This document shows, one piece after another, positions 5,905 to 58,000 of a stretch of DNA of 64,000 nt. The translations under genes and the position numbers were made by a program. Position 1 is the stretch's first letter. Each line of letters starts with the position of its first letter. Source of the DNA: an uncultured Solirubrobacterales bacterium (lineage in GTDB: Bacteria > Actinomycetota > Thermoleophilia > Solirubrobacterales > 70-9). The notes beneath the pieces were generated by a model. That model saw only the letters and a program-made list of their open reading frames with translations. It was not told the DNA's origin and did not search any database. Location: positions 2,551,798 to 2,615,797 of the forward strand of contig OY970339.1 of the NCBI GenBank assembly GCA_963717495.1. The letters run 5' to 3'.

Positions 5905-5991
5905 GGAGGGGTGCCGGAGTGGTTGAACGGGGCAGTCTCGAAAACTGTTGGCGTCGCAAGGCGCTCGTGGGTTCGAATCCCACCCCCTCCG
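5905..5991 (+). tRNA. tRNA-Ser (anticodon CGA)
   Basis: Acceptor GGAGGGG/CCCCTCC, anticodon loop CTCGAAA, long variable arm, T-arm GTGGG-TTCGAAT-CCCAC. CCA is not encoded. Confidence 0.9.
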
Positions 5992-6646: not shown

Positions 6647-9600
6647 GTGAGACGCCCCACGAAGGCATCGGCTGCGGGATCGACCTCGAGCCGAGCAAGC
6701 TACTTCGGCTCGGTCCTCGATGGAGCCTTCGCTACCCCCAGGCTCTCCTCTGACGTTGATGGGAGTGGTGTGTCCTCATATCGAGGTGCCCGCCTTCAGA
6801 TTCTCCTCCTCTGTTTCGCCGTCGTTGCCGCGATGGCGCTCACAGCCGTCCCCGCCTCCGCCGATCTCACCCACCCCTACACAGGTCTCTCTTTCGGCCC
6901 GGACGGAACCTCAGCGACCAGCTTCGACAGCGTCCAAGGCGTTGCCGTAGACCAGGCGAGCGAAGATGTCTACGTCTATGACACCGGCGCCGGCGGCAAG
7001 GTCTACAAATTCGACTCCAGCGGTGCCCCGGTCAGCTTCTCGGCCCTTACCGGCAACGCGATCGAAGGCGTTGGCGGCACCAGCGGTGCCGAAAATGAGA
7101 TCGCCATCGCGCCCGCCGGAGCGAGCGGAGGTACCGCCGGGGACATATACGTCGCAAACAACGTCGCGGTCAAAATCTATGACCAAAGTGGCACCCAGCT
7201 TGGCGAACTGACCGCTTCGGAGCCCTGCGGCGTCGCGACCGACCCGGCCGGCCACGTCTTCGTCGGCGTCTATCCGTCAGAAGTCATCGAATACACACCC
7301 AGCGCCGACCCCGTCACCAACGCCGATCAAACCGCCATCTCCTCGGGGGTCGTCCAAGGAATCTGCAATGTCGCCGCTGACGGTCTCGGCAACATTTACG
7401 CTGCCAAATACAACGGCGAAGTCAGCAAGCTCGAAGGTCTGGGGGACTCCAGCGCCTCGCTCTTGGACTCAAGCGCCACCACCCTGGCGGTCGACCCCGC
7501 CACCAACGACGTCTATGCCAACCGGGAAGTGGCTGTCAGGCAGTACGATTCCTCCGGCACGCTGCTGGGCAGCTTCGGTTCCGACCGGCTCGTCGGATCG
7601 CGTGGGATAGCAGTGAATGCCGCCAAAGGTGAAATCTACGTCGGCAACGCCGCAACGAACCGAGTCGAGATCTTCGGTTCAGGGGTTGTTCTTCCCGGCC
7701 TCACTCCGGAACCAGTCACGGCGATCACCGGGACCAAAGCGACCCTGAACGCCAGCGTCAACCCCGACGGGGTTGCCGTCAGCGAATGCAAGTTCGAATA
7801 CGGTCTCACCACTGCCTACGGCAGCTCCAAACCCTGTGAAGGAGCGATTCCACCCGACTCCAGCGACCACTCCGTCAGCGCTTCACTGGCTGGCCTGAGT
7901 CCCGCCACTATCTACCACTTCAGGATCGTTGCCACCAACACCAACGGAACTAACGAAAGCGCGGATCAAAGCTTCGAAACCAGTGCGACGGTAGTCACGG
8001 GATCCGCGACCGCGCTTGTCGGTTCTACTGCCACTCTCAATGGCACCGTGAGTCCCGAAGGCGTCCCGTTCACCGATTGCAGCTTCGAATTCGGCCTGAC
8101 CAACGCTTATGGCTCGGTGGCCCCCTGCGCCGAGACCCCGGCGACGATCGGCGCAGGCTTCGGCCCGGTTGGCGTTCACGCCGACCTCAGCGGCTTGACT
8201 CTCGGCTCCGTCTATCACTACCGCCTCAGCGCGACCAATACCGACGGCACCGTTCAAGGCAGCGACCAAAGCTTCAAGACTCCTGGCGCTTCCATCGAAG
8301 CAGAGTGGGTGGCGAGTGTCGCTGCCAAAGAGGCGACCCTGAAGGCCATCATCAATCCCGAAGGCTCGGCGACGACCTACCACCTCGAGTACGGGACCGA
8401 CACCTCTTATGGCAACAGCACGCATGAGGCCGTCGTTGGCTCCGATGAAGTCGGACACACGGTGACCTCCCTGGTAGAGGGTCTGGCGCCGGGGGTTACC
8501 TACCACTGGCGCGTTGTCGCGACCAACTCGGTTGGCGCTTCCGAGGGACCCGACCGCACCTTCACGACCCATGCCATCTCATCGGAAGGGGAGCCGGGAT
8601 GTCCCAACCAGGAATTCCGCACCGGCTCCTCCGCCCATCTTCCTGATTGCCGCGCCTACGAGATGGTCTCTCCGGTGGACAAAAGCAACGGGGATATCAT
8701 CACGCGCCTCAATCTCACCGGGTTTTTGACCGCTCTGGATCAGAGCTCGGTCGACGGCAATGGCTTTACCTACTCCTCGTACCGCGCCTTCGCCAATCCC
8801 GAAGGCGCTCCCTACACCAACCAGTTTCTCGCTCGCCGTACTCCGGGAAACGGTTGGCAGACCAAAGCCATAGATCCGCCCCGGTTTGGCGACACCTTCA
8901 TTGCCAAGGTCGAACTTGAGAACGACTACAAAGCATTCTCGGGCGACCTCTCCAGCGCTTGGCTGGTTCACGAATCGGAACCAACTCTCTCGCCATGTGC
9001 GCCGGCGGGTTTTGCCAATATTTATCGACGGACTGAAGCGTCGGACACCTATGAGGCACTGAACTGCGCCACGCCCATGTTGGAAGCAAGGGGCTTCAGC
9101 CCTGAACTTCAGGGGTTTTCTGCCGATGGCAGCGCCGCGGTTTTCCGCGCCGATGACAAGCTCACGGCGAATGCCTCTGAAGCGACGACGTTCACTGAAC
9201 TTGGGCTTCGGACGAATTATCAAGTCTATGAGTCAATAGAGGGTGACCTACGATTGATTAGTGTCTTGCCCAATGGTATTGCCACTACCGCGAATGCTTC
9301 GGCGGGAACCGCCCTTAGCAATGACTTCACGAATCACAATCGCGAACAGAGCGTGAGTCATGCCGTCTCATCAGATGGAACCAGGGTCTTTTGGAGTACG
9401 GGACTCAGCGCTGGACCAATCTACCTACGCCTTAACACCAACGAGGAGCAGAGCGCTAGCGGGGCTTGCGACGAAGCAGATAAAGCGTGCACGATGGAGG
9501 TCTCTGGTTCCGTCACTTCCGAACCCGCCTACTTTCAAACGGCAAACTCGGAGGGAACCAAAGCTCTCTTTACCGTTATCGAAGGTCCACTTGCCGGTAA

Positions 9601-10777
9601 TCTCTATGAGTTCGATGCAACCGCCGAGCCACCCGCTTCGCACCTCATCGCCGAAAAGGTGCAAGTTCCCATTCCGGGTGGTAATGGAAGTAAGGCGTAC
9701 GGAAGTATTCTTGGCGCCAGCAATGATCTCTCTCGAATCTTCTTTGCCTCCGAAGAAGCTTCCTCCGCCGCAGAAGCTGAAGGGGCTGAGAAAGGCGAAG
9801 CAAATATCTACTTCTATAATGCTGGCGCCACCCGCTTTGTCGGTGCCCTCTCGACTGCGGACCTGGGCACCACCAACAACTACGGGAGTTCAATAAGGGC
9901 TCAGCCATTTAAGCGTACTGCACGGGTCAGTGCGGATGGCTGGTCGGCGGTATTCATGTCGAGCAGTAAAAGCACGAGCGAATCGGTGGGTTACGACAAC
10001 ACGGATGCGCTGAGCGGCGAACCCGATGCAGAGGTCTATCTCTACGATGCGAGGGCGGAAGGGCAAGCGGGGAAACTGCGTTGCGTGTCATGTAACCCTA
10101 CGGGTGCGCGGCCTCAGGGACGAGAAATTGCCAGTGGCCTTAATGGCCTACCCGGTCCCTGGGGTGCTGCCACTGTTCCCCCGTTCGAGACCCAGCTTTA
10201 CCAGTCTCGCTATCTATCTGACGATGGTAACCGAGTCTTTTTCAACAGCGTCGATGCTCTGGTTCTAGGCGATACCAACGGTAGGGAGGATGTCTATCAA
10301 TGGGAGTCGCCGGGTTCTGGGAACTGCAGTCTCCAACACTCCTCCTACACCGCTTCTTCGGAAGGCTGTCTCAACCTGATCTCCTCTGGGCAAAGCCCTG
10401 CCGACTCCCATTTTCTCGACGCTAGCCCAACCGGATCGGACGTCTTTTTCACCACCGTCGAGAGTCTCTTAGTCCAGGACTACGGCCTGATTGACGTCTA
10501 TGACGCCCGCGTTAACGGCGGTTTCCCGCCGCCACCGAACTCCGCGGCGGCCTGCGAAGGTGAAGCCTGTCAAGGCCCGCTTGAAGCGCCCAACGATCCG
10601 ACTCCAGCGTCGGCCGCCTTCCGGGGTGCCGGCAACGTCAAGGAGCCGGATAAGGCCCGCTGCGCCAAGGGCAAGGCCCGGCGCAAAGGTCGCTGCGTTG
10701 CCAAAAAACGCCACAAGCGCTCTAACGGGAGCGCTACTAAGCATCGAGCCAACGACACCCGGAGGGTAGGACGATGA
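6647..10777 (+). CDS. Giant secreted protein: NHL-type beta-propeller, 3 tandem FN3/Ig-like modules, PD40/TolB-like repeat region and a basic Cys-flanked tail
   Basis: - 1376-aa ORF with RBS aaggagag before the GTG. A signal-like segment [23 protein letters not shown] is present; GTG 6770 is an alternative start.
- Six NHL-like blades (e.g. '[18 protein letters not shown]', '[17 protein letters not shown]').
- Three ~95-aa repeats (nt ~7706-8569), each ending in YH[FYW]R[ILV]VATN.
- Repeated '[LV]S.DG..V[FV]F' PD40-like motifs.
- C-terminal '[20 protein letters not shown]'. Confidence 0.8.
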   Translation: [1376 protein letters not shown]

Positions 10778-13719
10778 GCAAGCGACTCGCACGAGTGGTG
10801 TTTTTGGCGAGCCTCTCCCTCGCAGCGAGCGCCGCCCTTTTCGCGGGCACGGCCTTGGCGGCCTTTGGCATTGAAGACTTCGATGTCGCCTACACCAACG
10901 CGGATGGCTCACCTGCGACCCAGGCAGGGTCCCATCCCTTCCAGATGACCACCTCGGTGCATTTCAATCTGCGCGACTCCGAACATGCAGAGGGAGCGTT
11001 TAAGGATGGGACCTTCGAACAGATCGCAGGTTTGGTCGCCGACCCCACCGCAGCTCCGCGTTGCTCGGCCGTTGATTTCGTCACCCTGATAAAAGGGGAA
11101 CGTGTCACCCTCTGTCCCAATATGACTGCGGTTGGAGCGGCCGCGACCGAATTAAACCCGGGTGGAAAGCAGTACAGTGCTGTCTATAATCTCGAGCCAC
11201 CGCCTGGTGTGGCCCTGAAACTTGGCTTTATCGCTTACAACACCCCGGTCACGATCGAAGTAGGGCTCAAGCAGTCCTACCCATACAACGGCACCGCTGT
11301 TGTTGTCAACCTTCCTCAGACCGCTAACATTCTCAATTCGATTATTACTCTTTGGGGGAATCCAGCAGATCCCGCTCACGACCCTTTCCGAGGAGCGTGC
11401 GTACAGGCTGCCGAAGCCAGCGGCCCACAGCAGAACCAAACCGAATATCCGGAACTTCCTTCGTTTGGGGAATGCCATATCAATACTCCAGCAGTGCCCT
11501 TCCTCACCCTGCCCCGTGCCTGTGAGGGCCCCCTCGCCACCACCTTCGCCGTTGACTCCTGGGAAAATCCCGGTGCGAGCTTGCCCAATGGCGAACCGGA
11601 CCTTGCCGACCCCGCTTGGGTCTCGGGCTCGGTCGTCACCCATGACGACGCCACCCCACCCAACCCCCAAGGCATGACCGGCTGCGCCAAACTCGGCTTC
11701 AGCCCGACTATCAAGGCGCAACCCACGACCAAAGCCGCCCAGTCGCCCTCCGGCCTCGACTTCTCCCTCGACGTCAAGGACGAAGGCCTGACCAGCCCTA
11801 CCGGCCTGGCCAACTCCGACATCAAGAAGACCGTCGTCACCCTCCCCGAGGGCTTCTCCACCAACCCCTCCCTGGCCGAAGGCCTGAACGTCTGCTCTGA
11901 AGCCGACCTGGCCAAGGAGACGCCCTTCTCAGATCCCGGCGCTGGCTGCCCCAATGCCTCCAAGATCGGCACGGTCGAAGTCGAAACGCCGCTGCTGGAT
12001 GAAAACGTCAACGGCTCCCTCTTCATCGCCACCCCCTACGAGAATCAGGCAGGGAGCCTGATCGCCCTCTACCTCGTGATCAAGAACCCGAAGCTCGGCA
12101 TCATCGTCAAGCAGGCGCTGAAGGTCGAAAACGACCCGCTCACCGGCCGCATCACCACCGTCGCCGACAACCTCCCCCAGCTCCCCTTCTCCCACTTCAA
12201 GCTGCACTTCCGCGAGGGAACGAGAAGCCCCCTGGCGACCCCACCCGGCTGCGGCACCTATAACGCCTCCGCCGTCCTGACCCCCTGGGCCGGAGGCTCT
12301 CCGATAACCACCAACTCCGCCTTCCAGATCATCACCGGCCCCAACGCCGGCCCCTGTCCCTCCGGCGGCACCCCGCCCTTCAAACCAGACCTCACCGCCG
12401 GCACGATCAACAACGCCGCCGGCACCTATAGCCCCTTCAACCTCCGTCTCTCCCGCGACGACGGCGAACAGGAGTTCACCCACTTCTCGATCAAGCTGCC
12501 CCCGGGCATCGTCGCCAAGCTGGCCGGCGTGCCCTTCTGCCCCGACACCGCAATTGCCGCGGCCAAAGCAAGGACCGGCCCCCACGGCGGCGCCGAAGAG
12601 CTGGCGAGTCCTTCCTGCCCTGCGGCAAGTGAGATCGGCCGCACCCTCGTCGGCGCCGGCGTCGGTCCAAGCCTCGCCTACGCCCCCGGCAAGGTCTACC
12701 TCGCCGGCCCCTATAACGGCTCCGCTCTAAGCATCGCGGCAATCACCGCCGCCAAGGTCGGCCCCTTCGACCTCGGCACCGTTGTCGTCAGAGAGGCGAT
12801 CAAGATCAACCCCGAAACCGCCGAAGTCTTCATCGACGCCACCGGCTCAGACCCGATCCCCCACATCATCAAAGGCATCCCCGTCCACGCCAGAGACATC
12901 CGCGCCTACGTCGACAAGCCCCAGTTCACGCTCAACCCGACCAGCTGCGAAAGAACCTCGACCGCTTCGACGGTCCTCGGCTCGGGCCTGAACTTCGGCT
13001 CCGAGGCCGACGATCAGCCGATCACGGTCACCTCGCCCTTCCAGGCCGCAGACTGCGCCAGCTTGGGCTTCAAGCCCAAGCTGGCCCTAAACCTCAAAGG
13101 CGCCTCGGGAAGAGGAGGCCACCCGCGCTTCAAAGCGGTCTTGACCCCAAGGAAAGGCGATGCCAACTCCGCCTTTGCCCAGGTCACCCTGCCCCACTCG
13201 GTCTTCCTCGACACCGAACACATCAAAACCATCTGCACCCGGGTCCAGTTCAACTCCGGGGCTTTCCCCGGCGCCAACTGCCCGGCCCAGAGCGTCTACG
13301 GCTACGCCAAAGCGATCACCCCGATCCTCGACGAAGCAGTTCAAGGCCCCGTATTCCTCAGATCCTCCAGCCACAACCTGCCCGACCTGGTCGCCGCCTT
13401 GCACTCCGGCAAGATCGACTTCAACCTCGTCGGCAGAATCGACTCGGTCAAGGGCGGGAGGATCCGCAACACCTTCGAGCTCGTCCCCGACGCCCCCGTC
13501 ACCAAGTTCACCTTGGAAATGCAGGGCGCCAAGAAGGGCTTGCTGGTCAACTCCACCGATCTCTGCAAATCGACCAACCGGGCGATCTCCGACTTCCGGG
13601 GGCAAAACGGGAAGCGCTCGCTGACTCATCCGGAGCTTGTGCCGGATTGTGGGAAGGGACGGAAGGGCAAGGCGAAGGCCAAGCGCTCCTCGGTTCGGCG
13701 GGTCCTTAGCTCCTGGTAA
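10774..13719 (+). CDS. Large secreted protein of unknown function, translationally coupled to the preceding giant
   Basis: ATGA overlap with the upstream stop, with RBS ggaggg. Signal peptide LASLSLAASAALFAGTALAAF. 981 aa and I do not recognise the family. Basic tail 'DCGKGRKGKAKAKRSS'. Confidence 0.8.
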   Translation: MSKRLARVVFLASLSLAASAALFAGTALAAFGIEDFDVAYTNADGSPATQAGSHPFQMTTSVHFNLRDSEHAEGAFKDGTFEQIAGLVADPTAAPRCSAVDFVTLIKGERVTLCPNMTAVGAAATELNPGGKQYSAVYNLEPPPGVALKLGFIAYNTPVTIEVGLKQSYPYNGTAVVVNLPQTANILNSIITLWGNPADPAHDPFRGACVQAAEASGPQQNQTEYPELPSFGECHINTPAVPFLTLPRACEGPLATTFAVDSWENPGASLPNGEPDLADPAWVSGSVVTHDDATPPNPQGMTGCAKLGFSPTIKAQPTTKAAQSPSGLDFSLDVKDEGLTSPTGLANSDIKKTVVTLPEGFSTNPSLAEGLNVCSEADLAKETPFSDPGAGCPNASKIGTVEVETPLLDENVNGSLFIATPYENQAGSLIALYLVIKNPKLGIIVKQALKVENDPLTGRITTVADNLPQLPFSHFKLHFREGTRSPLATPPGCGTYNASAVLTPWAGGSPITTNSAFQIITGPNAGPCPSGGTPPFKPDLTAGTINNAAGTYSPFNLRLSRDDGEQEFTHFSIKLPPGIVAKLAGVPFCPDTAIAAAKARTGPHGGAEELASPSCPAASEIGRTLVGAGVGPSLAYAPGKVYLAGPYNGSALSIAAITAAKVGPFDLGTVVVREAIKINPETAEVFIDATGSDPIPHIIKGIPVHARDIRAYVDKPQFTLNPTSCERTSTASTVLGSGLNFGSEADDQPITVTSPFQAADCASLGFKPKLALNLKGASGRGGHPRFKAVLTPRKGDANSAFAQVTLPHSVFLDTEHIKTICTRVQFNSGAFPGANCPAQSVYGYAKAITPILDEAVQGPVFLRSSSHNLPDLVAALHSGKIDFNLVGRIDSVKGGRIRNTFELVPDAPVTKFTLEMQGAKKGLLVNSTDLCKSTNRAISDFRGQNGKRSLTHPELVPDCGKGRKGKAKAKRSSVRRVLSSW

Positions 13720-30282: not shown

Positions 30283-30386
30283 GCTCTGCCGCGCGGTTCC
30301 TTATTCGCCTATCTGGTCGGTTTGGAACCGCGGAACGAGCGACGACGCTGTTTGTAAATGCGCGCGTTCCTCTCTAGGCTGGACCG

Positions 30387-30836
30387 GTGCCCGGGGGGCG
30401 CGTCGCCATCGCAGCGGTACTCGCCGTGCTGTCCGGCCTGGTCTTCGCCGGTAGCGCGCTCGCCTGTTCCTGCGCCCCTTCGCCGCCCTCGGAAGCGCTG
30501 GCCGGCTCCGATGCCGCGATCGTCGGGCGCCTGCTCGGGGTGACGCCGCACGGCGCCACGCAGGCGAAGTACCGCTACGAGGTCCTACGCGTATACCGCG
30601 GGCGTGGGTCGATCGAGAGCGGGGCGGGGCTGACCGTGCTGAGCCCGCGAGGCTCGGCGGCGTGCGCTCTCCCCGACCGGGTTGGTAGGCGCTACGGGCT
30701 CTTCCTGCTAGTCGATCGCGGCCGTTGGGCGTCGGGGCTCTGCGGGGTCATCTCGCCACGGCGACTGTGGTCGGTGGCGCGGCGCCCGGCCGGCGCCCGT
30801 GTCAGTGATCCTGGCGGTTCCAGCTGTACTAGTTGA
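30387..30836 (+). CDS. Small secreted protein with TIMP/NTR-like N-terminal 'C-x-C' architecture
   Basis: Signal peptide ending 'GSALA', then mature 'CSCAPSPPSEALAGSDAAIVGRLLG...YRYEVLRVYRG...SAACALP...YGLFLLVDRGRWASGLCGVISP'. See the finding for the comparison with TIMP-1. Confidence 0.5.
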   Translation: MPGGRVAIAAVLAVLSGLVFAGSALACSCAPSPPSEALAGSDAAIVGRLLGVTPHGATQAKYRYEVLRVYRGRGSIESGAGLTVLSPRGSAACALPDRVGRRYGLFLLVDRGRWASGLCGVISPRRLWSVARRPAGARVSDPGGSSCTS

Positions 30837-30869: not shown

Positions 30870-31604
30870 ATGGCACAGCAAGACACGGCCGCGCGGACAG
30901 CTCTCAACCCCTTCGCCACCGATCCCAGCGACGAGCTGCCGGTCGGTCTGCAGCTGACCTGGCGGCTGCGGGCCCTGATCTCCACCGGTCAGCTGCGCAG
31001 CGGCGAGCGGCTGCCGAGCTTCCGTGGCTTGGCCGTGTGGGCGGGGGTCAATCTCAACACCGTGCGGGCGGTCTACGAGGGACTCGAGGCGGACGGCCTC
31101 GTGGTCAGCCGCCAGGGCCAGGGCACCTTCGTGGCCGAGGGCGTCGAGGCGGCCCCCGAGCTGGAAGAGATCGCCACCGAGGCCCTGCGCCGCGCCGGCG
31201 AGGCGGGCCTCGGGCCCCGCGACCTGGCGATCGTCGCGCTGGCCTGCGCGAGCATTCCCGGCAATGCCGGAGGGGAGGTTCCGGCGCCACTGCCGCCGGG
31301 CCTCCCCGATCCCGGCGAAGAGAGCGAGGCGATCGAGGTGCGGCAGGAGCTGCGCCGCCAGATCGGCCGGCTCGAGGCCGAGCTGGCCAGCTACACCCGT
31401 TACCTCAGCGCCGGCGAGATGCCGACGGCGCCGCGGCGGGCGGTCGCCCACGTCGCCGGCGTCGAGGAGCTGGAGGAGACCCGCGACACGCTGATCGCCC
31501 AGCTCTCCGAGGCGCAGCGGGCGGCCGAGCGGCGGGTGCGGCAGGAAGCGAAGTCCCGCGGTCCCCTCGGCAGGGCGATGAGCCGGTGGCGCTCGAAGCC
31601 GTAG
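30870..31604 (+). CDS. GntR family transcriptional regulator
   Basis: wHTH 'LPSFRGLAVWAGVNLNTVRAVYEGLEADGLVVSRQGQGTFV' with a coiled, acidic/basic C-terminal half. Confidence 0.85.
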   Translation: MAQQDTAARTALNPFATDPSDELPVGLQLTWRLRALISTGQLRSGERLPSFRGLAVWAGVNLNTVRAVYEGLEADGLVVSRQGQGTFVAEGVEAAPELEEIATEALRRAGEAGLGPRDLAIVALACASIPGNAGGEVPAPLPPGLPDPGEESEAIEVRQELRRQIGRLEAELASYTRYLSAGEMPTAPRRAVAHVAGVEELEETRDTLIAQLSEAQRAAERRVRQEAKSRGPLGRAMSRWRSKP

Positions 31605-31621
31605 TACGCAAAGCCGGCCCC

Positions 31622-32392
31622 GTGGGCGAGTTCTTCGTCGAGGTGGGGACGATGGTGATCCTCACCCTGAAGACGATCGTCTCCGCGATCAGGGCCCCCT
31701 ATCCCTACGGCGAGGAGCTCGTCTGGCAGTTCCTCTTCGTGCTGAAGCTCTCCTGGTTCCCGCTGCTGATCTCCACCTTCGCCCTCAACCTCGGTGCCCC
31801 CGGGCTGCAGGCGGCCGGGGTGCTCTCGCTGTTCGGAGCGCTCGACCGGCTCGGCGGCTTCTTCGTCGTGATCGCGATTCGCTGGATCGCGCCGTTGGTC
31901 ACCGCGGTCGTGGTGGCGGGAGTGGCCGGCACCGCGATCACGGCCGACCTCGGGGCCCGCAAGATCCGCGAGGAGCTCGACGCTCTGCAGGTGCTCGGCG
32001 TCGACCCGGTCAAGAACCTGGTGGTGCCGCGATTCCTGGCGCTGATGATCGTCACCGGGCTGCTGGACATCTTCGCGATCGTCTTCGGCCTCGGCGCCGG
32101 GATCGCTGCCGAGCTCCTGTACAACCAGTCGCTCGGCGGCTTCTTCGCGACGCTCTTCACCAACGCCACGATCACCGACCTCTGGTCCTCGGTCCTGATG
32201 TGCACGATGTTCGGCGCGATCGTCGCGGTCGTCTGCTCTTACAAGGGGATGTCGGCTTCGGGCGGGGCCGCTGGAGTGGGACGCGCCGTCAACCAGGCCG
32301 TGGTCATCTCCCTCGTCGCGGTCTTCTTCTTCCAGTTCGTCGTCAGCTCGGTCCTGCTCGCCACCAACCCCGAGCTGCAGGCGGTCCGTTGA
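31622..32392 (+). CDS. MlaE/YrbE-family ABC permease (YrbEA-like)
   Basis: This is the hydrophobic C-terminal 256 aa of track ORF 30833..32392; the upstream part is another frame of the gntR region. 'DALQVLGVDPVKNLVVPRFLA' is the typical MlaE motif. The start (GTG 31622 or ATG 31652) is uncertain. Confidence 0.75.
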   Translation: MGEFFVEVGTMVILTLKTIVSAIRAPYPYGEELVWQFLFVLKLSWFPLLISTFALNLGAPGLQAAGVLSLFGALDRLGGFFVVIAIRWIAPLVTAVVVAGVAGTAITADLGARKIREELDALQVLGVDPVKNLVVPRFLALMIVTGLLDIFAIVFGLGAGIAAELLYNQSLGGFFATLFTNATITDLWSSVLMCTMFGAIVAVVCSYKGMSASGGAAGVGRAVNQAVVISLVAVFFFQFVVSSVLLATNPELQAVR

Positions 32393-33186
32393 TCGGCTGG
32401 CTCGACGTCCCGCGGAGCTGGTTCGACTCCTTCGGTGAGATCATCCGCTTCGGCCTGCAGGTATCGGGTCAGGTCTACTCGGGCCGGGTGCTCAAATTCT
32501 TCGGCGAGAGCCTGCGCCAGGCCGGGATCCTGATCTTCGGCTCAGCCCTGATCATCCTCGCCTTCGTCTTCATCCTCGGCCTCCAGTGCGGCCTCCAGGG
32601 CGCCTACTTCAATCGCTCCATCGGCGCCCCCTCCTTGGCCGGCCTTTTCTCGGCCTATTGCGATCTGCGCGAGGGGCTGCCCTACGCCTTCGGCTACATC
32701 CTCTCGGCCAAGGTCGGGACGGGGATCGTCGCCGAGATCGGCGCGATGCGGATCTCCGACGAGATCGACGCCCTCGAGGTGATGGGGATCCAGCCGGTGA
32801 CCTTCCTCTGCGCAACCCGCCTGCTCGCCGCCTGGATCGCGATTCCCTTCCTCTACCTGATCGGGATCGTGGTCGTGTATGCCGCCAGCTACCTGGCGGT
32901 GGTCAACCAGGTCGGTGACGTCTCCTCCGGCGGCTATCTGCTGATCTTCTGGATGTACCAGAGCCCGCCCGACCTGATCTTCAGCCTGGTCAAGGGGATG
33001 GTGATGGCGACCACGATCATCCTCGTCGGTTGCTACTACGGCTACACCGCCTCGGGAGGCCCCGTCGGCGTCGGTACGGCGACGGCCCAATCGATGGTGG
33101 TCAACATCGTCATGGTCCACATCATCGGCATGCTCGGGACGGTGGTCTTCTGGGGGGCGAACCCCCGGGCGCCGATCGGCGGCTGA
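32389..33186 (+). CDS. MlaE/YrbE-family ABC permease (YrbEB-like)
   Basis: TTGA overlap with the previous stop. 'DALEVMGIQPVTFLCATRLLA' motif. 265 aa. Confidence 0.75.
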   Translation: MIGWLDVPRSWFDSFGEIIRFGLQVSGQVYSGRVLKFFGESLRQAGILIFGSALIILAFVFILGLQCGLQGAYFNRSIGAPSLAGLFSAYCDLREGLPYAFGYILSAKVGTGIVAEIGAMRISDEIDALEVMGIQPVTFLCATRLLAAWIAIPFLYLIGIVVVYAASYLAVVNQVGDVSSGGYLLIFWMYQSPPDLIFSLVKGMVMATTIILVGCYYGYTASGGPVGVGTATAQSMVVNIVMVHIIGMLGTVVFWGANPRAPIGG

Positions 33187-35570: not shown

Positions 35571-35642
35571 TGGGCACGGCTGGTTTCGAACCAGCGACCT
35601 CTCGCGTGTGAAGCGAGCGCTCTCCCACTGAGCTACGCGCCC
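35571..35642 (-). tRNA. tRNA-Val (anticodon CAC)
   Basis: The reverse complement GGGCGCGTAGCTCAGTGGGAGAGCGCTCGCTTCACACGCGAGAGGTCGCTGGTTCGAAACCAGCCGTGCCCA folds as a cloverleaf with anticodon loop TTCACAC. Confidence 0.9.
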
Positions 35643-38037: not shown

Positions 38038-38312
38038 AGCGGACCGTGCTAGGCGGGGAGTTAGCGGTGCCTTGTCACCCGCAATCCGCTTTAGCGGGGC
38101 CGAATCCCGTTCCGAGGGGCTGGCCGTCGGGGTCAGTGCGTCGCGGCGGCGTTGACGGCCGGGTCCTGCGCGACGTGGGCACGCGAATCAGGTCAGGTCC
38201 GGAAGGAAGCAGCCTTAAGCGGATGCCGCGGGTGCCGCAGGTGAGCCCGGCAGGAGCCAAAAACGACGGACACGCCCGGTGACCACGCTTCGAAGGCGGG
38301 CGCACGGTCCAT
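38038..38312 (+). ncRNA. ffs: Signal recognition particle RNA, long (Bacillus-type, Alu-domain-containing)
   Basis: - Domain IV core caGGTCAGGTCCGGAAGGAAGCAGCC (38189-38214).
- 5' Alu-domain block gtgctaggcggggagttagcggtgccttgtcacccgcaatccgctttagcggggccgaatccc closely parallels B. subtilis scRNA as I recall it.
- Closing helix ggaccgtgc (38041-49) pairs with gcacggtcc (38302-10).
- The ends are approximate. Confidence 0.85.
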
Positions 38313-51387: not shown

Positions 51388-53424
51388 ATGAACGATCAGC
51401 ACGTAGACCAATCGGCGCGCAAGCGCTCGAGCCGCCTCCCTGTGCGGCCCCCCCAGGTGAACTTCAAGGACGCCGCCGGCGCCTTCGGCGAGCGACTCGC
51501 CGCGATCGGGCGGTGGTTCCTCAAAGACCCGATGAACACGATGCTGATCGCCGCCTCGATCTTCCTCTCCGCCACCTTCTTCATCCTCCTCGACCAGATC
51601 CAGCCCAGCTCGGCCGGCGAAAAGGTGCCGCTGAGCAAGATCTTCAAGCTGACCGAGGACAAGCAGGTCGAGGTCGCGACCCTGCTCGACCAGGACTCGC
51701 GGGTGGTGATCGACACCGCCAACGGGCGCACCGTCTACGCTGCCTATCCGAGCTCGGACGCGCAGACCAACTCGCTGGTCAAAGCCCTGGCCGAAAGCGG
51801 CGCCGTGGTCACGATCGACCAGCAGGCCGATATCCCCTCGAAGCAGATCATGGTCCAGTTCCTGATCCCGATCCTGCTGCTGGTCTGCCTCTTCGTCCTC
51901 TTCACCCGGCTCGGCCAGGACGGCGGCGCCGGGGCCTTCGCCGGCTTCTCGAAATTCACCGGCAAAGGGCGCAAGAAAGGCGCCGAGTCCCCCGATCGGA
52001 CCACCTTCGACGACGTCGCCGGCGCCGGCGAAGCCCTGGCCGAGCTGCGCGAGATCCGCGACTACCTGGCCAACCCGGGCAAATATGCGGCGGTCGGGGC
52101 GCGGGCGCCGAAGGGCGTGCTGCTGGTCGGCCCCCCCGGCACCGGCAAGACGCTGCTGGCGAAGGCAACGGCGGGGGAGGCCGAGGCGACCTTCTTCTCA
52201 CTCTCCGGCTCGGACTTCGTCGAGTCGCTGGTCGGGGTCGGTGCCGCCCGTGTCCGCGACCTCTTCGCCAAGGCCCGCAAACAGGCGCCGGCGCTGATCT
52301 TCATCGACGAGCTCGACGCCGCCGGGCGCAAGCGTGGCGCCGGCGTCGGCCAGGGCAACGACGAGCGCGAGCAGACGCTGAACGCGATGCTGGTCGAGAT
52401 GGACGGCTTCGGCGGCGACGCCGGCGTCGTCGTCCTCGGCGCCACCAACCGTCCCGACATCCTCGACCCGGCGCTGCTGCGACCGGGCCGCTTCGACCGC
52501 CAGGTGACCGTCGACGTGCCCGACGTCCACGGCCGCCTCGACATCCTCACCCTGCACTGCAAGGGGCGGCCGCTGGCCCCGGGCACCTCGCTCGACGAGG
52601 TCGCGAAACTGACCTCGGGCTTCAGCGGCGCCGAGCTCGCCAACGTAATCAACGAGGCGGCGCTGCTGACCGTGCGCGAGGGCCGGGTCGAGATGGACCA
52701 GGCGACGCTGGAGGAGGCGATCGACCGGGTGATTGCCGGCCCGGCTCGCAAAAACCACGTGCTCAGCGAGGAGGAACGCTGGACGATCGCGATCCACGAG
52801 TCCGCCCACGCCGTGGTGATCCGCTCCAGCGGCCAGAAGATGACCACCCAGAAGGTCTCGATCGTCGCCCGCGGGCGCCAGATGGGGACCGCCGCGAACA
52901 TGCTCACCGACCGCGACGCGGTGGTCATGCAGGAGCCCGACATGCGCCGCCACCTGATCGCGATCGTGGCCGGTTTCGCGGCCGAGCGGATCGAGTTCGG
53001 CGTCGCCTCGACCGGCGTCCACGACGACCTCCACGCCGCCACCGGCCTGGCCCGGATGATGGTCACCTCCTACGGGATGTCGCCGGCGCTGGGCCCGGTG
53101 ACGATCGGCGAGAAAGCCGGCGAGGTCTTCCTCGGCGCCTCGCTGCAGGACATGGGCCAGGTCGCGCAGGCGACGCTGGAGACGATCGACAGTGAGGTCG
53201 AGCGGCTGGTCGGCGACTCGGTCAACCAGGCCGAGGCGATCCTCAGGACCAACTGGAGCGCCGTCTACGAGACGGCCAACGCGCTGATCGAGCACGAGAC
53301 GCTCTCCGGCCACGCGCTCGACGCCGTGCTTGCCTCGGTCCAGCCGACTCTGCTCGACTTCGGCACCAAGGTCGACGCGGAGGTGGAGACGCGCGAGTTC
53401 GAGGCCCAGTCGGAAGGTGAGTAG
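51388..53424 (+). CDS. ftsH: ATP-dependent zinc metalloprotease FtsH
   Basis: '[18 protein letters not shown]' (Walker A), 'IIFIDELDA', the SRH '[19 protein letters not shown]' and the zinc motif 'HESAHAVV'. Confidence 0.95.
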
Positions 53425-55039
53425 AGCGGCGAAAACGGCGCTGGCCTCTCTCGCGGCGCTGCTGATCGCGGCGATCGGCTCAGGCTCTGCCCGCGCCGAC
53501 GCCCTGATCTGGCGCCTGGAGCAGCCGGCACCGCCGTCTGGCTCCCCCTTCAAAGTGCCGCTCGGAGCGCCGGGAGATCTCTCCTTCTGGGCCCCGAACC
53601 GCGGCTTGCTGACGGTCGAGGGCAACAGCACGATCCCGCGTGGCATCTTCAGCTGGAACGGCCAGAGCTGGCACCAGCTGGCGACCGTCTGTGGCGGGCC
53701 AGGCGACAGCGCGCGGATTGCCTGGGCCGGTCCCGACGAGTTCTGGGTGATCAGCGAACCAAGCCTGCCGCGCTCCGGCGCGGGCCTCGCCCTCTGTCGC
53801 TTCAAGGGCGGCCAGGTGGTCGGCTCCTGGAGCACCCGGGTCGACGCCGCCGACCCGTTCCGGCAGATGCTCTCGGCAACCTGCAACGGGCCGGGCGACT
53901 GCTGGTTCGGCGGTGTGGGATCTCAGGACGCCCTCGGCACCCGCATTGGCGCCTTCCACCTCCACTGGAATGGGTCCGACCTCGAATCGGTCTACGGCCC
54001 GCAGGGACGAGGGGTCAGCGACATGCAGTTCCACCAGGGCCGTCTCTATGAGTCCACCTATGTCGGGCGGGGTCCTGAAAACCGCGGCGAAGCGGTAGAG
54101 CTCGCCGAAACGGAGGCGGTGCCGAGGCTGATCCACACGGTCAGCGGCCATGCCTTCGCCAGTGATCCCTTCACGCCCGCCGCCCTGCCGGGCGTGCCCG
54201 GCGATGGCACCGAGCTGCTCGGCCTCGACAGCGACGGCACCGATCTCTGGGCGGTCGGCGGCGGGGCCGCGTCGGGGCCCTCGGCGCCGGCGGAAAAATC
54301 GGTGGCGCGTCCGCCCTTCGCCGCCAGGCTGGTCGCCGGTTCCTTCCAGGAGCTGGAGCTGACCGGCGGCGAATTCGGGCTCACCGACCGCCTCGGCGAC
54401 GTCGCCGCCATGCGCGGCAGCGAAGACGCGATCGCCACGGTGGTCCCCTTCGCCGACCGTCGCAGCACCAACAGCAAGGCGACCGTGGCCCGGATCGCGC
54501 CCGACGGCACGGCGACGACCACGCGCCTGCCGGCCTCGGGGGCGGGGCGCGGCAGCGCCGCCCGGGTCGCCTGCCCGGCCGTGAACGACTGCTGGATGGT
54601 CACCTGGGGCGGCTGGCTCTTCCACTACAGCGACGGCACTCCACTCGCGATCGACACCGACCCCAATTTCCAGGGCACGATCGATTTCCGCCCCAACGAG
54701 GCGGCCGAACAGTTCGTCCCCGATGCGCTTCCGGTCGACGATTCGCAGCTGTTCGCCCCGGCTCCGGTCGAAGACGCGAAAGCGAAGGAAGCGCGCATCC
54801 GCAAGCTGGCGCCGCTGCTGAAGCGGATCCGCTCGCGGCTTCAGGGGCTCGCGCTGACGGTCAGCTTCACCGTCACCCGGCGAGCGCGGGTCGCGCTGAT
54901 CGCCAAGCGCGGCGGCCGCACCGTCGCCCGCACGCCCAAGCGCACGTTCGGGCCCGGCCGCCACTCCCTCCTGCTCCACCTCAGCCGCGACCGCTACCCG
55001 ACCAAGCTGGCCTTCGACACCAAGGAGGTGAAGCGGTGA
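53417..55039 (+). CDS. Secreted beta-propeller-like protein with Arg/Lys-rich C-terminal module
   Basis: GTG 53417 overlaps the ftsH stop by 8 nt (start uncertain). Signal peptide 'ALASLAALLIAAIGSGSARA'. Trp/Gly-rich repeats ('FSWNGQSWHQL', 'HLHWNGSDLE', 'MVTWGGWLFHY'). Tail 'LALTVSFTVTRRARVALIAKRGGRTVARTPKRTF'. Confidence 0.7.
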   Translation: MSRAAKTALASLAALLIAAIGSGSARADALIWRLEQPAPPSGSPFKVPLGAPGDLSFWAPNRGLLTVEGNSTIPRGIFSWNGQSWHQLATVCGGPGDSARIAWAGPDEFWVISEPSLPRSGAGLALCRFKGGQVVGSWSTRVDAADPFRQMLSATCNGPGDCWFGGVGSQDALGTRIGAFHLHWNGSDLESVYGPQGRGVSDMQFHQGRLYESTYVGRGPENRGEAVELAETEAVPRLIHTVSGHAFASDPFTPAALPGVPGDGTELLGLDSDGTDLWAVGGGAASGPSAPAEKSVARPPFAARLVAGSFQELELTGGEFGLTDRLGDVAAMRGSEDAIATVVPFADRRSTNSKATVARIAPDGTATTTRLPASGAGRGSAARVACPAVNDCWMVTWGGWLFHYSDGTPLAIDTDPNFQGTIDFRPNEAAEQFVPDALPVDDSQLFAPAPVEDAKAKEARIRKLAPLLKRIRSRLQGLALTVSFTVTRRARVALIAKRGGRTVARTPKRTFGPGRHSLLLHLSRDRYPTKLAFDTKEVKR

Positions 55040-58000
55040 GCCGGGTGCAGGCGAATCGCCGCCGTCTCCTCGTCGCGACGAGCGTCTTCGCGGTCTCCAT
55101 CGCGCTCGCCTCGCTGGGGGCGCCGAGCGGTCGCGGCGAGCCATTGGCGCCCGGAGTGGGCCCGCTGCCCCTGCTTGGCACCGCCGACCCGGCGATGAGC
55201 CTGATGGGGGCGGCGCCGGCGGGCCAGCCAGGCGAGGCCTGGGGGTACAGGCAGCTGCCGGCCTCGGTCACCTCCGCCGAAGTCGGCACGCGGCCGCTCG
55301 CCTTCGGTCCTCCCCTGGAAGCGAGCAACCCGCGCGCCCAGCTCGCCTTCCTCCGCTACACCGACGCCAGCGGCTGGCAGGTCTACGAGACGCCGGTGGA
55401 CGCCTCCGGCAACCCCTACCGCGGCCCCACCCCGAACCGCCTCTCGGCGAGGATCACCCGCGAGGGCGGGGGGGTGCTCGTCGGTCGCGACCCGACCCGG
55501 CCGACGAGCGACCAGGTGGTTGTGCTCGACCACGATCCCGGCGGCCCCTGGAAAGCGCTGCAAGCGCCGCCGGCGACGGTCCTGCTCCCAGCCGAAGGCG
55601 AAAGACCGGCGGAGACCCTGGCCGCGGAGCTCGGTGCCGGCCAGATCGCCAACGCCGCCTTCGACGAAGGCGGCCACACCGGCCTCTTCTTCGCCCCAAC
55701 CGGCCGTTCGGTCGCCGACGCGGTTATCCGCTACGACGGCGCCAAAGCCGAATGGGCCCGCGAGCCGGTCAAAGTCCCGCTCGGCTCGGAGACCGAGTTC
55801 CAAATCCTCGCGATCGACGCCACCGGCCTCGGCAACGCCTGGGCGATCGCCGATGCGGCCGACGGGCTGGGGCGCTCGGTGGTCCTGTTGCAGCGGACCA
55901 TCACCCCCGAAGGCCCGCTCTGGGTCGAGCGGGGGCTGGGCGCCGCCCAGTTCGCCGACCGCGAAACGCCGGCGCTGGGAATCTCAGGACTGGCCCCGAT
56001 CGGCGGCGCCGCGCAGCCGCTGACGGTGACCGCGAGCGGGGTCTGGATTGATCTCACCGGAACGATCGGGGGCGCCAGCCGCGACGTCACGGTGTACTAC
56101 GACATCGGCGCCGGCGCCGTGACCAGCTCCTGGTGCGACGTGGAAGCGGTCTGCGGCACGCGCAGGCTCGGTGTCAAGCTCTCGCGCCAGGTCGGCTACC
56201 GCAGCTTCGCCTGGCCCGGCGCCGGCGCCGGCTCCAGGGTCGTCACCAACCCGCTCGACGTCGATGGCGGCGAGGAAACCAATCGCGGCACCTATCTGCG
56301 GCTGAGCGGGGAAAGCTTTGCGCGGATGCCCGGCGCCGGCGGCAACTTCCGCGCCGGCGGCGCTTTCTACAACGACCAGAGCGGCTGGCTGGACGGTCCG
56401 CTTGAGATCTCGGGCAAGGCCGCGCCCGACCTCCTGCGCCCCTGGCCGATCTCGCTGAGAGCGCCGCTGACCGCGGCGACGACGGCGCCGGGCTCCGCGC
56501 CGGGCTCGCTTGCCTCGGGCGCCCTGACGGTCGGAGTCGATGGCAGCGTCGCCCGCTACGCCCCCGGCAAGGGCTGGCAGCGCGAGTTCCTGCTCAGCGC
56601 CAGCGGCGCGGTCAGGAAGCCGGTCCTGCGTGGCGTCGCCTGGCCGGAACGGGGACACGCCTACGCGGTCGGGGACCTCGGGGCGATATGGGAGTGGAAC
56701 GCGAGCGACGGCCTCTGGATCGCCGATCCCGGGGTTCCGATCGGCTTCGAGGGCAACCTCACCGGCGTCGCCTTCGATCCCGCCGAACCCGATCGCGGCT
56801 TCGCCGTCGGCAAGGACGGTGTCCTGCTCCGCTTCGGCAAGAGCTGGGAGCAAGACGTCCTGCCCCCTGGTTTCGCCGGCCGCAGCTTCACCTCGATCGC
56901 CTTCGCCGGCCGCGAGGCGATCGTCGCCGCCGGCGGCGACCTCCTGGTCGAAGACGGTGGCGGCTGGCACGCCGACGCCTCGGCCCAGGCGCTGCTGCGC
57001 GGCGCCCCCGGCGCGCAGCCCTACATCTACGCGGTCGCGGGGCTGCCCGACGGCGGTGCCGTCGCGGCGGGCCGCGACGTGGTGATCGAGCGCGACGGTG
57101 GCCCCGGCACGCCCTGGCGCTTCTCCAAGCAGCCGATTCCGGGCTCGACCGCGATCGCCGCCGCCGCGGTGCGCGACGGTGGGGTCCGCGCGATCGTCTC
57201 GGTCGTTCCGCAGCTCTCCTTCCCGCCCGCCGACGATGTGCCGCCGCCCGACCCAACCGTGCCGCCGCCGATCCTGCCGCCGTTCGCGTTGCCCGGCGAC
57301 GGCTATCTGCTGCGCGAGACCGCGAACGGCTGGGAGGACGAGCAGCGGACCAGCTTCGCCGGCTCCGGAGCGGACCGGCCGCTGAAGAGCGACCCGGTGC
57401 TGGCGCTCCTGCTCGACTCCGCCGGCGCCGGCTGGGTGGTCGGCGGCTGGAGCGGCCACGCCGACATCACCGGCCGCGGCACCTCTGCCAGCGGCAGTGC
57501 CGCAAGTGCCATTCGCGCCCGGGTCAGGACCGCCTCGATCGCTCGCTTCGGCGCCGCCGCCGCCCCGGCCCCGGTCGCCGCCAGAAGCACGCCGGTCCCC
57601 CTGCCCGGCGGTCCGGTCCGTTTCGCCGTCGCCGGCAACGCGACCTGCGAGGAAGCCTGCGCCGACCTCGCCCCGCAGTCGATCGGGCCTGACAGGACCC
57701 TCAGCGCCGCCCTGCGGCTGGCCGGGGCGATGCACGGCGCGGCCGCCGGCCCCCGGGCGCTGCTTTACACCGGCAACCGGGTCGCCACGGGGCTCGGCCA
57801 GGCCGACGGCGAACGCTATGCGGTCCTGCTGGGCTCCGAACCGAGCCTTCCGGTGTTTCCCGCCGTGGGCTCCGGCGATGTCAGCAACGGCCTCGGTTCG
57901 AGCGTGTTCGCGACGTCCTTCGCCGGATTCCCGGCACCGCTGGGGACGGGCGCCGCGGCCGCGGGAATCTCGACCGCCGGCATTCCGGGCGCCCCCGCCC

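Follow-up and report, generated by a model that had tools for sequence, protein, structure and literature searches.

The TIMP-like Gene and Its Upstream Region

The window analysed here is a DNA stretch of 64,000 nucleotides from an uncultured Solirubrobacterales bacterium, a soil actinobacterium (assembly GCA_963717495.1, contig OY970339.1, positions 2,551,798 to 2,615,797 of the forward strand). It carries on its plus strand a gene (30387..30836) whose product is, as established in silico, a bacterial protein homologous to the inhibitory N-domain of animal tissue inhibitors of metalloproteinases (TIMPs). This gene's open reading frame (ORF) was found exactly as the initial annotation had described it, with a GTG start codon, 149 codons and a TGA stop. 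The 149-aa product reads MPGGRVAIAAVLAVLSGLVFAGSALA up to the predicted cleavage point and continues with CSCAPSPPSEALAGSDAAIVGRLLG..., the predicted mature start being CSCAPSPP.

This ORF is a real gene under selection, because the G+C content at third codon positions (GC3) is highest in its own frame (0.81 vs. 0.73 and 0.66 in the shifted frames), its dN/dS ratio against 15 orthologous loci ranges from 0.24 to 0.48, and it possesses a conserved putative promoter of its own. Homologues of the window protein number 400 at E ≤ 1e-3, the nearest showing 91% identity. Both the G+C content and the codon usage of the gene are native to the genome.

Most of the 104-nt spacer at the 5′ side of the gene cannot be aligned from one locus to another, with the exception of an AT-rich block (TTTGTAAAT...TCTCTAGGCTG, 30352-30386), which is nearly invariant in 10 of the 11 aligned Solirubrobacterales loci. 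Based on conservation and spacing, this block is considered a putative promoter of the actinobacterial, sigma-A type (30352..30380, plus strand), with a -35 element TTGTAA (30352-30357), a spacer of 17 nt and a -10 element TAGGCT (30375-30380). The end of the -10 element is separated from the GTG codon by 6 nt, and a leaderless or near-leaderless mRNA is therefore implied. A consensus promoter and terminator scan found nothing; it missed this block because TAGGCT agrees with TATAAT at only three of the six positions. The upstream ATG at 30358 was rejected as a start codon, being out of frame and replaced by TAAATA or TAAATC in other loci. The run of six G residues in codons 3-4 is invariant, and there is therefore no frameshift.

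Homology to the N-Terminal Domain of Animal TIMPs

In a single-sequence phmmer search against all PDB sequences, the window protein matched only TIMP-1 and TIMP-3 chains (best E 4.1e-5). The alignment opens at Cys27, which is placed on Cys1 of the TIMPs, and continues with C29 on C3, C93 on C70, and C119 on C99. The Pfam TIMP profile (PF00965) matches the protein with an E of 8e-5 and 22.9 bits, the gathering score being 23.1, and close homologues carry precomputed PF00965 matches. None of the other Pfam families matches the window protein, the NTR family (PF01759) remaining unmatched even at E ≤ 10, and no NCBIfam model fits it. The Smith-Waterman score against N-TIMP-1 is 97, whereas 1,000 composition-preserving shuffles of the mature sequence score 24.4 ± 3.8 and none of them reaches 97 (z = 19). 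The respective z values range from 8 to 12 for TIMP-2, -3, and -4.

The link to TIMPs is stronger when the family is used in place of the single sequence. In detail, a profile of 83 diverged members (29-54% identity to the window protein) retrieved from the PDB TIMP-1, -2, and -3 only, with a best E of 6.4e-7, and the hhalign comparison with an alignment of the human TIMP1-4 N-domains yielded a probability of 95.8% (E 7.8e-9). Among these 83 members, 24 match PF00965 individually at E ≤ 0.01 and none matches another Pfam family. Identity between the window protein and animal TIMPs is only about 17-25%. The four blocks of TIMP-1 alignment on which the initial annotation had relied were all reproduced independently by HMMER. 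Its description of the protein as one "mimicking" the TIMPs is abandoned, as the protein is one of a family of homologues in free-living bacteria, which has at least 1,678 clusters at 50% identity, and is not a host mimic.

The core of the protein (residues 43-122, 30513..30752, plus strand) is modelled as a five-stranded OB/NTR β-barrel, as in the N-domain of TIMPs. The AlphaFold model of the mature protein, built with an alignment of 61 sequences, has a mean predicted local distance difference test score (pLDDT) of 86.7 and a predicted template modelling score (pTM) of 0.77; most of the core blocks of ten residues score 93-97 and the lowest one 83. Five long strands plus one helix at the N-terminal and one at the C-terminal side make up its secondary structure, and the last ~10 residues are disordered. 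When this model was compared with the PDB using Foldseek, the best 13 matches were all TIMP-1, TIMP-2, or N-TIMP-3 (template modelling score relative to the query, TMq, 0.65-0.69; root mean square deviation 2.3-3.3 Å), followed by the NtA domain of agrin, the NTR module of PCOLCE, the C345C domains of complement C3/C5, and the NTR module of meteorin. Bacterial structures were not found among the top 50 PDB matches listed, and the viral structure library returned generic OB folds only, none below E 1e-3. An earlier AlphaFold model, which included the signal peptide, had a mean pLDDT of 73, and its best PDB match was already TIMP-1/2/3. The OB/NTR fold proposed in the initial annotation is the one that AlphaFold models, with the N-domains of TIMP-1, -2, and -3 as the best PDB matches.

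The first 26 residues of the product (30387..30464, plus strand) are predicted as a Sec-type signal peptide with MPGGR as the n-region, VAIAAVLAVLSGLVFAG as the h-region and SALA as the c-region; no twin-arginine motif is found in it. Positions -3 to -1 are occupied by A-L-A, directly before Cys27. The predicted mature N-terminus, that is, Cys27-Ser28-Cys29-Ala30-Pro31 (30465..30479, plus strand), corresponds to residues 1-5 of TIMPs, which belong to the zinc-chelating inhibitory ridge, and HMMER pairs its CSCAP with the CTCVP of TIMP-1. As in TIMPs, the first residue of the mature protein would be a Cys, judging in silico from the ALA-C junction, and the Cys-Thr/Ser-Cys of TIMPs is found here as CSC.

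The cleavage site was examined in 133 family representatives with a mutual identity of at most about 50%. Position -3 is Ala in 127 and position -1 is Ala in 130 of them. Position -2 is variable and includes Gln (16), His (12), Arg (7), Glu (4), Lys (3), and Tyr (4). The classic lipobox, [LVI][ASTVI][GAS]C, occurs in three representatives and the G+LPPv2 pattern in 21. The ALAC of the window protein fails both of them and fits only a permissive PROSITE-like pattern (SALAC). From this pattern and its conservation, the site is classified as an A-x-A site of the signal peptidase I type; the lipid-modified Cys, which according to the initial annotation would have spoken against its proposal, is not what the family sites resemble.

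Ser or Thr at the second mature position is a rule of TIMPs. Among the 133 representatives, 122 have Ser and seven have Thr there; among the 109 aligned short-form representatives that were used for column conservation, the respective counts are 100 and six. The location of A-x-A and then C-S/T-C exactly at the signal-peptide cut is the most telling point; it separates TIMPs from non-inhibitory NTR modules and is kept throughout the bacterial family. The latter modules are not known to have their first Cys at the mature N-terminus.

The residues of the inhibitory ridge and its cysteines are the most conserved part of the family. C27 and C29 are invariant, C93 and C119 are each found in 106 of the 109 representatives, and six of the 15 most conserved columns are C27, S28, C29, C93, G94, and C119. 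The segment Ser90-Ala-Ala-Cys93-Ala94 (30654..30668, plus strand) corresponds to the C-D connector of TIMPs (E67-S-V-C70-G71 in TIMP-1), which is the second half of the ridge. The residue following C93 is Gly in 89 of the 109, as in the "CG" of TIMPs, and Ala in the window protein. At the fourth mature position, 91% of the sequences have Ala, Val or Ile. In TIMPs, contacts with the protease (crystal structures such as 1UEA) are made by residues 1-5, the C-D connector (~66-70) and the loop before C99, and the C1-C70 disulfide fastens the connector to residue 1. The alignment of C27, C29, C93, and C119 with C1, C3, C70, and C99 is common to phmmer, the family profile, and hhalign. By homology, the disulfides are expected to be C27-C93 and C29-C119, the latter Cys (30741..30743, plus strand) being the counterpart of TIMP Cys99 and the predicted partner of Cys29.

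The initial annotation had counted four Cys in the mature protein. Their match to TIMP C1, C3, C70, and C99 stands, but the actual number is five, as Cys147 (codon 30825-30827) had been overlooked. It lies two residues from the C-terminus, in a disordered tail rich in Arg, Ala, Gly, and Ser (residues 133-149, 30783..30833, plus strand; pLDDT < 50). A tail Cys is kept in 94 of the 109 representatives, almost always 0-10 residues from the C-terminus and with small residues beside it. The family profile pairs Cys147 with Cys124 of TIMP-1, whose partner, Cys13, has no counterpart: the equivalent position is Gly40 in the window protein, and a Cys is found there in at most one of the 109 representatives. 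The third disulfide had been declared absent, and this is in agreement with the missing Cys13, though Cys147 aligns with Cys124. Since the equivalent of Cys13 is absent, Cys147 is taken to be unpaired, that is, the surviving half of the third disulfide; it could serve for disulfide bonding between molecules, for tethering or for metal binding.

The C-terminal domain of TIMPs with its three further disulfides is absent, and the protein ends 30 residues after Cys119. Single-domain N-TIMP-like proteins also occur in some invertebrates. Sequence and fold together suggest that the window protein is a bacterial TIMP of one domain, with two disulfides and an additional Cys in its tail.

The Bacterial Family and the Gene Neighbourhood

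When 1.84 billion cluster representatives were searched exhaustively with a profile, 1,678 proteins matched at E ≤ 1e-3, of which 293 reached E ≤ 1e-10. The family is deeply diverged within bacteria. Nearly all of the best 150 profile matches have ~140-180 aa, with Cys-x-Cys after a signal peptide. Those members whose lineage could be assigned belong mostly to uncultured Solirubrobacterales (Actinomycetota, Thermoleophilia), mostly from metagenome-assembled genomes (MAGs). In the respective search for related loci with a close alignment, 27 loci were found, almost all of them from Solirubrobacterales. Distant relatives are located in Acidimicrobiales, in one Omnitrophica genome and in one Terriglobia genome. 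The Omnitrophica relative has four Cys and keeps the CSC...C...C pattern, with both the tail and its Cys absent. Some homologues have been auto-annotated as "Tissue inhibitor of metalloproteinase" by the JGI and NCBI pipelines; the TIMP resemblance is therefore not hidden and was discoverable.

The relative from the Terriglobia MAG (L033:7923-9332) is a protein of 469 aa, which scores 28.8 bits with the Pfam TIMP profile, over the threshold, and has a Cys near the position of TIMP C13. Its TIMP-like N-domain is fused to CarboxypepD_reg and Big_1 domains. The gene is placed between genes of M16 and M20 peptidases (L033:4685-7495 and L033:9358-10956), a single case in which neither peptidase is a metzincin. 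A homologue search seeded with this N-domain gave three matches only.

A subset of long forms (~390-540 aa) carries an extra uncharacterised region of ~250-400 residues and, in some members, a membrane anchor. For instance, five metagenomic proteins of 430-525 aa (P0195, P0207, P0224, P0234, and P0257) consist of a TIMP-like N-domain, a Pro-rich linker and then a long region, which is repetitive, rich in strands and without a Pfam match. In two of them (P0234 and P0257), a stalk rich in Thr and Pro and a membrane anchor form the C-terminal end.

The TIMP-like gene is followed by a GntR regulator gene (30870-31604) and by two overlapping genes of MlaE/YrbE permeases (31586-32392 and 32389-33186, plus strand), so its placement upstream of a GntR gene and an orphan yrbE pair (31586-33186) was correctly given in the initial annotation. 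In the syntenic loci, no Mce substrate-binding genes are called after the permeases and no MlaF-type ATPase is called within about 8 kb; in the window, the next ORF is on the opposite strand. The orphan MlaE/YrbE pair is kept in several Solirubrobacterales MAGs. The gene order HD-domain protein, Zn-alcohol dehydrogenase, TIMP-like protein, GntR, MlaE, MlaE is kept at ~70% identity, and at the locus of a 53%-identical orthologue a convergent GGDEF gene is located in place of the GntR-MlaE block. The adjacency to GntR/YrbE is lineage-specific synteny. A functional link of the TIMP-like gene to GntR/YrbE or to the upstream alcohol dehydrogenase was rejected, because the neighbours differ in more diverged members.

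Several other features of these loci were recorded. About 4 kb downstream of the orthologue in another Solirubrobacterales MAG, a cluster of exported proteins (L002:12407-16447) includes a PG_binding-M23 peptidase, a 575-aa HemolysinCabind protein and a protein with a PPC/P_proprotein domain; neither the window nor a further locus (L001) has this cluster. The window contains two adjacent, very large ORFs on the plus strand (6647-10777 and 10774-13719) of 1,376 and 981 aa. The former has weak matches to fn3, NHL, and purple-acid-phosphatase-N, the latter has no Pfam match, and both (6647-13719) fail the coding filter of GC3 > 0.80 and G+C content at second codon positions < 0.62. Right after ftsH, two ORFs of 569 and 1,491 aa (53330-59511, plus strand) have no Pfam match at E ≤ 1e-3. 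A bacterial large signal recognition particle RNA (38044-38307, plus strand; 158.7 bits) and three tRNA genes (2787-2876 and 5905-5991 on the plus strand, 35571-35642 on the minus strand) were also located.

Proposed Function and Alternative Explanations

With somewhat more confidence than doubt, it is proposed that the protein is exported through the Sec pathway, cut by signal peptidase I, stabilised by two disulfides and acts in the manner of TIMPs, inhibiting a zinc endopeptidase of the metzincin type through a free N-terminal Cys. In detail, the gene's own conserved promoter would give rise to an mRNA that is probably leaderless, and the exported product would be cut after Ala-Leu-Ala; the mature protein would therefore start at Cys27 with a free α-amino group. 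The disulfides Cys27-Cys93 and Cys29-Cys119 would staple CSCAP to the SAAC loop on the OB/NTR β-barrel, and the two stapled segments may form the same wedge-shaped ridge as in TIMPs. The most likely function would be the tight, noncovalent inhibition of an extracellular metzincin-type zinc endopeptidase, with the ridge inserted in the active-site cleft. Chelation of the catalytic zinc would be due to the α-amine and the carbonyl of Cys27, with Ser28 directed into the S1′ pocket.

Animal TIMPs (PF00965, MEROPS I35; structures 1UEA, 3MA2, 1BR9, and 3CKI) are the closest known system. The shared features are a signal-peptide cut before Cys1 with a Cys-Ser/Thr-Cys-x-Pro start, the "S-x-x-C-G" connector, the Cys positions of C1-C70 and C3-C99, the first strand with "SD..I/V..", and an OB/NTR barrel followed by a C-terminal helix; sequence homology is detectable and the best structural match is a TIMP. 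On the contrary, the window protein is bacterial, has ~20% identity to TIMPs, consists of a single domain without the six-Cys C-terminal domain, and lacks the C13-C124 disulfide, with the C124-aligned Cys on a disordered tail.

AprI/Inh of Pseudomonas and Serratia (MEROPS I38) is an exported metzincin inhibitor whose N-terminal residues enter the cleft near the catalytic zinc. It shows that chemistry of the proposed kind is in use in bacteria, though its eight-stranded barrel is unrelated, has no CxC, and is encoded in the same operon as its protease. AprI is also cited in the study of the Listeria monocytogenes Tim protein (PMC8235301). Tim, similarly to the window protein, is exported by a bacterium and predicted to contain a TIMP-like domain; it is the lipoprotein partner of the metzincin Mtz and has an LTAC lipobox, its resemblance to TIMPs lies in the predicted structure and not in the sequence, its gene adjoins the metzincin gene, and it is cleaved by that protease (PMC8235301). 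The window protein differs from Tim in its A-x-A site, its detectable sequence homology to TIMPs and the lack of an adjacent protease. Potempin A of Tannerella forsythia is likewise a small bacterial OB-fold inhibitor of a metzincin similar to matrix metalloproteinases (MMPs), and its gene is immediately upstream of that of its target protease (PMC9890683). Unlike the window protein, it is an outer-membrane lipoprotein of unrelated sequence with a "bilobal" mechanism in which the N-terminal amine does not take part (PMC9890683).

A number of observations weigh against the proposed inhibition. The Pfam TIMP score lies 0.2 bit under the gathering threshold, the third disulfide of N-TIMPs (C13-C124) is absent, and a conserved fifth Cys makes the number of Cys odd. 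In the literature searched, neither a characterised bacterial TIMP homologue nor the biochemistry of any family member was found. The gene neighbourhoods of diverged family members have nothing in common. Moreover, no metalloprotease gene is linked to the TIMP-like gene; the only HExxH protein of the window is FtsH (51388-53424), 20 kb away. FtsH was rejected as a target, being a distant housekeeping protease, and its catalytic domain is cytoplasmic. The metzincin motif HExxHxxG/NxxH/D is absent from the ORFs of at least 150 codons in 591 kb of sequence, comprising the flanks of 37 related loci and the window. As the inhibitors AprI, the potempins, and Listeria Tim are encoded beside their proteases, the absence of such linkage here speaks more than anything else against a dedicated pair, and orphan is the better description of the gene. 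As no protease is found beside it in any lineage examined, the target may be encoded elsewhere in the genome or may be foreign, that is, from competitors.

The lack of a protease partner in any neighbourhood is also consistent with a secreted NTR/OB-fold module which binds a nonprotease ligand (e.g., a cell-wall polymer, a protein or a matrix component) and is not inhibitory, an explanation that we regard as rather unlikely. Agrin NtA, PCOLCE NTR, and complement C345C are binding modules of this kind for nonprotease ligands. The fold of the window protein fits such noninhibitory modules with template modelling scores of 0.6-0.65, but the sequence searches match TIMPs only and never the Pfam NTR family. 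Considering the NTR modules more broadly (netrin C-terminal, sFRP, PCOLCE, C345C, agrin NtA, and meteorin), the OB/NTR fold is shared at scores of 0.5-0.65, whereas these modules lie inside their proteins or at the C-terminal end, have no free N-terminal Cys and for the most part do not inhibit proteases. Moreover, the window protein is a stand-alone domain to which the PF01759 profile does not match, and the fold alone is common. The large uncharacterised C-terminal region and the membrane anchor added in long forms, as well as the Terriglobia fusion to CarboxypepD_reg and Big_1, which looks like a modular binding domain, would suit a binding role. On the other hand, the Cys-Ser/Thr-Cys is found strictly at the signal-peptidase cut, which is a TIMP-specific arrangement without a role in other NTR modules, and the ridge residues are those most conserved in the family.

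The odd number of Cys, the fifth of which is on a disordered tail in 94 of the 109 representatives, and the invariant CxC could also indicate a thiol- or metal-handling protein, in which the CxC and the flexible tail Cys bind metal or exchange disulfides and the OB fold is a mere scaffold. This is improbable, as the four core Cys match the structural disulfides of TIMPs one-to-one, and the Omnitrophica protein (L031), without a tail Cys, keeps CSC...C...C. In addition, neither clusters of His, Met, or Asp ligands nor metal-homeostasis neighbours are present at the examined loci.

Even less credit is given to a lipoprotein like Listeria Tim, with Cys27 diacylglyceryl-modified, a cut by signal peptidase II, a blocked N-terminus and a tether to the membrane. 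The -3 position, which is Ala and not Leu, Val or Ile in nearly all representatives, and the -2 position, at which Q, H, R, E, K or Y is common, speak against it. SALAC fits the permissive lipobox of the PROSITE style, but the window protein fits neither of the two stricter patterns, which are themselves infrequent in the family. With Cys27 excluded from the disulfides the remaining Cys would be even in number; by homology, however, Cys27 is required for the disulfide with Cys93. In favour of this reading, the one TIMP-like protein of bacteria that has been studied by experiment is a lipoprotein (PMC8235301). Finally, a recent horizontal acquisition of an animal TIMP for host mimicry or manipulation is scarcely credible: CSCAP is the same as the start of human TIMP-4, but the identity to animal TIMPs is low, the family is huge (1,678 clusters at 50% identity) and deeply diverged in bacteria, and the G+C content and codon usage are native.

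Those articles on TIMP evolution that were searched treat TIMPs as a metazoan family (PMC4860685, PMC9409782), and the authors of the 2021 Listeria study found no record of bacterial TIMP-like proteins (PMC8235301). Returning to the inhibitory function proposed here, a wider idea is put forward tentatively, and with somewhat more reserve than confidence: TIMPs may not be an animal invention, and the bacterial family may consist of genuine inhibitors which chelate zinc by their N-terminal amine, are secreted as orphans, and are either ancestral to the TIMP/NTR module of metazoans or its ancient sister. If so, the secreted inhibitors would perhaps serve as a defence against foreign metzincins, and the tail Cys could tether or dimerise the inhibitor. 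If confirmed, the small two-disulfide TIMPs would provide scaffolds for engineering selective inhibitors of MMPs and ADAMs, and the family would constitute a new class of secreted bacterial metalloprotease inhibitors. A bacterial TIMP family with every sequence hallmark of the inhibitory edge would, in that case, alter the view of the origin of the TIMP/NTR proteins.

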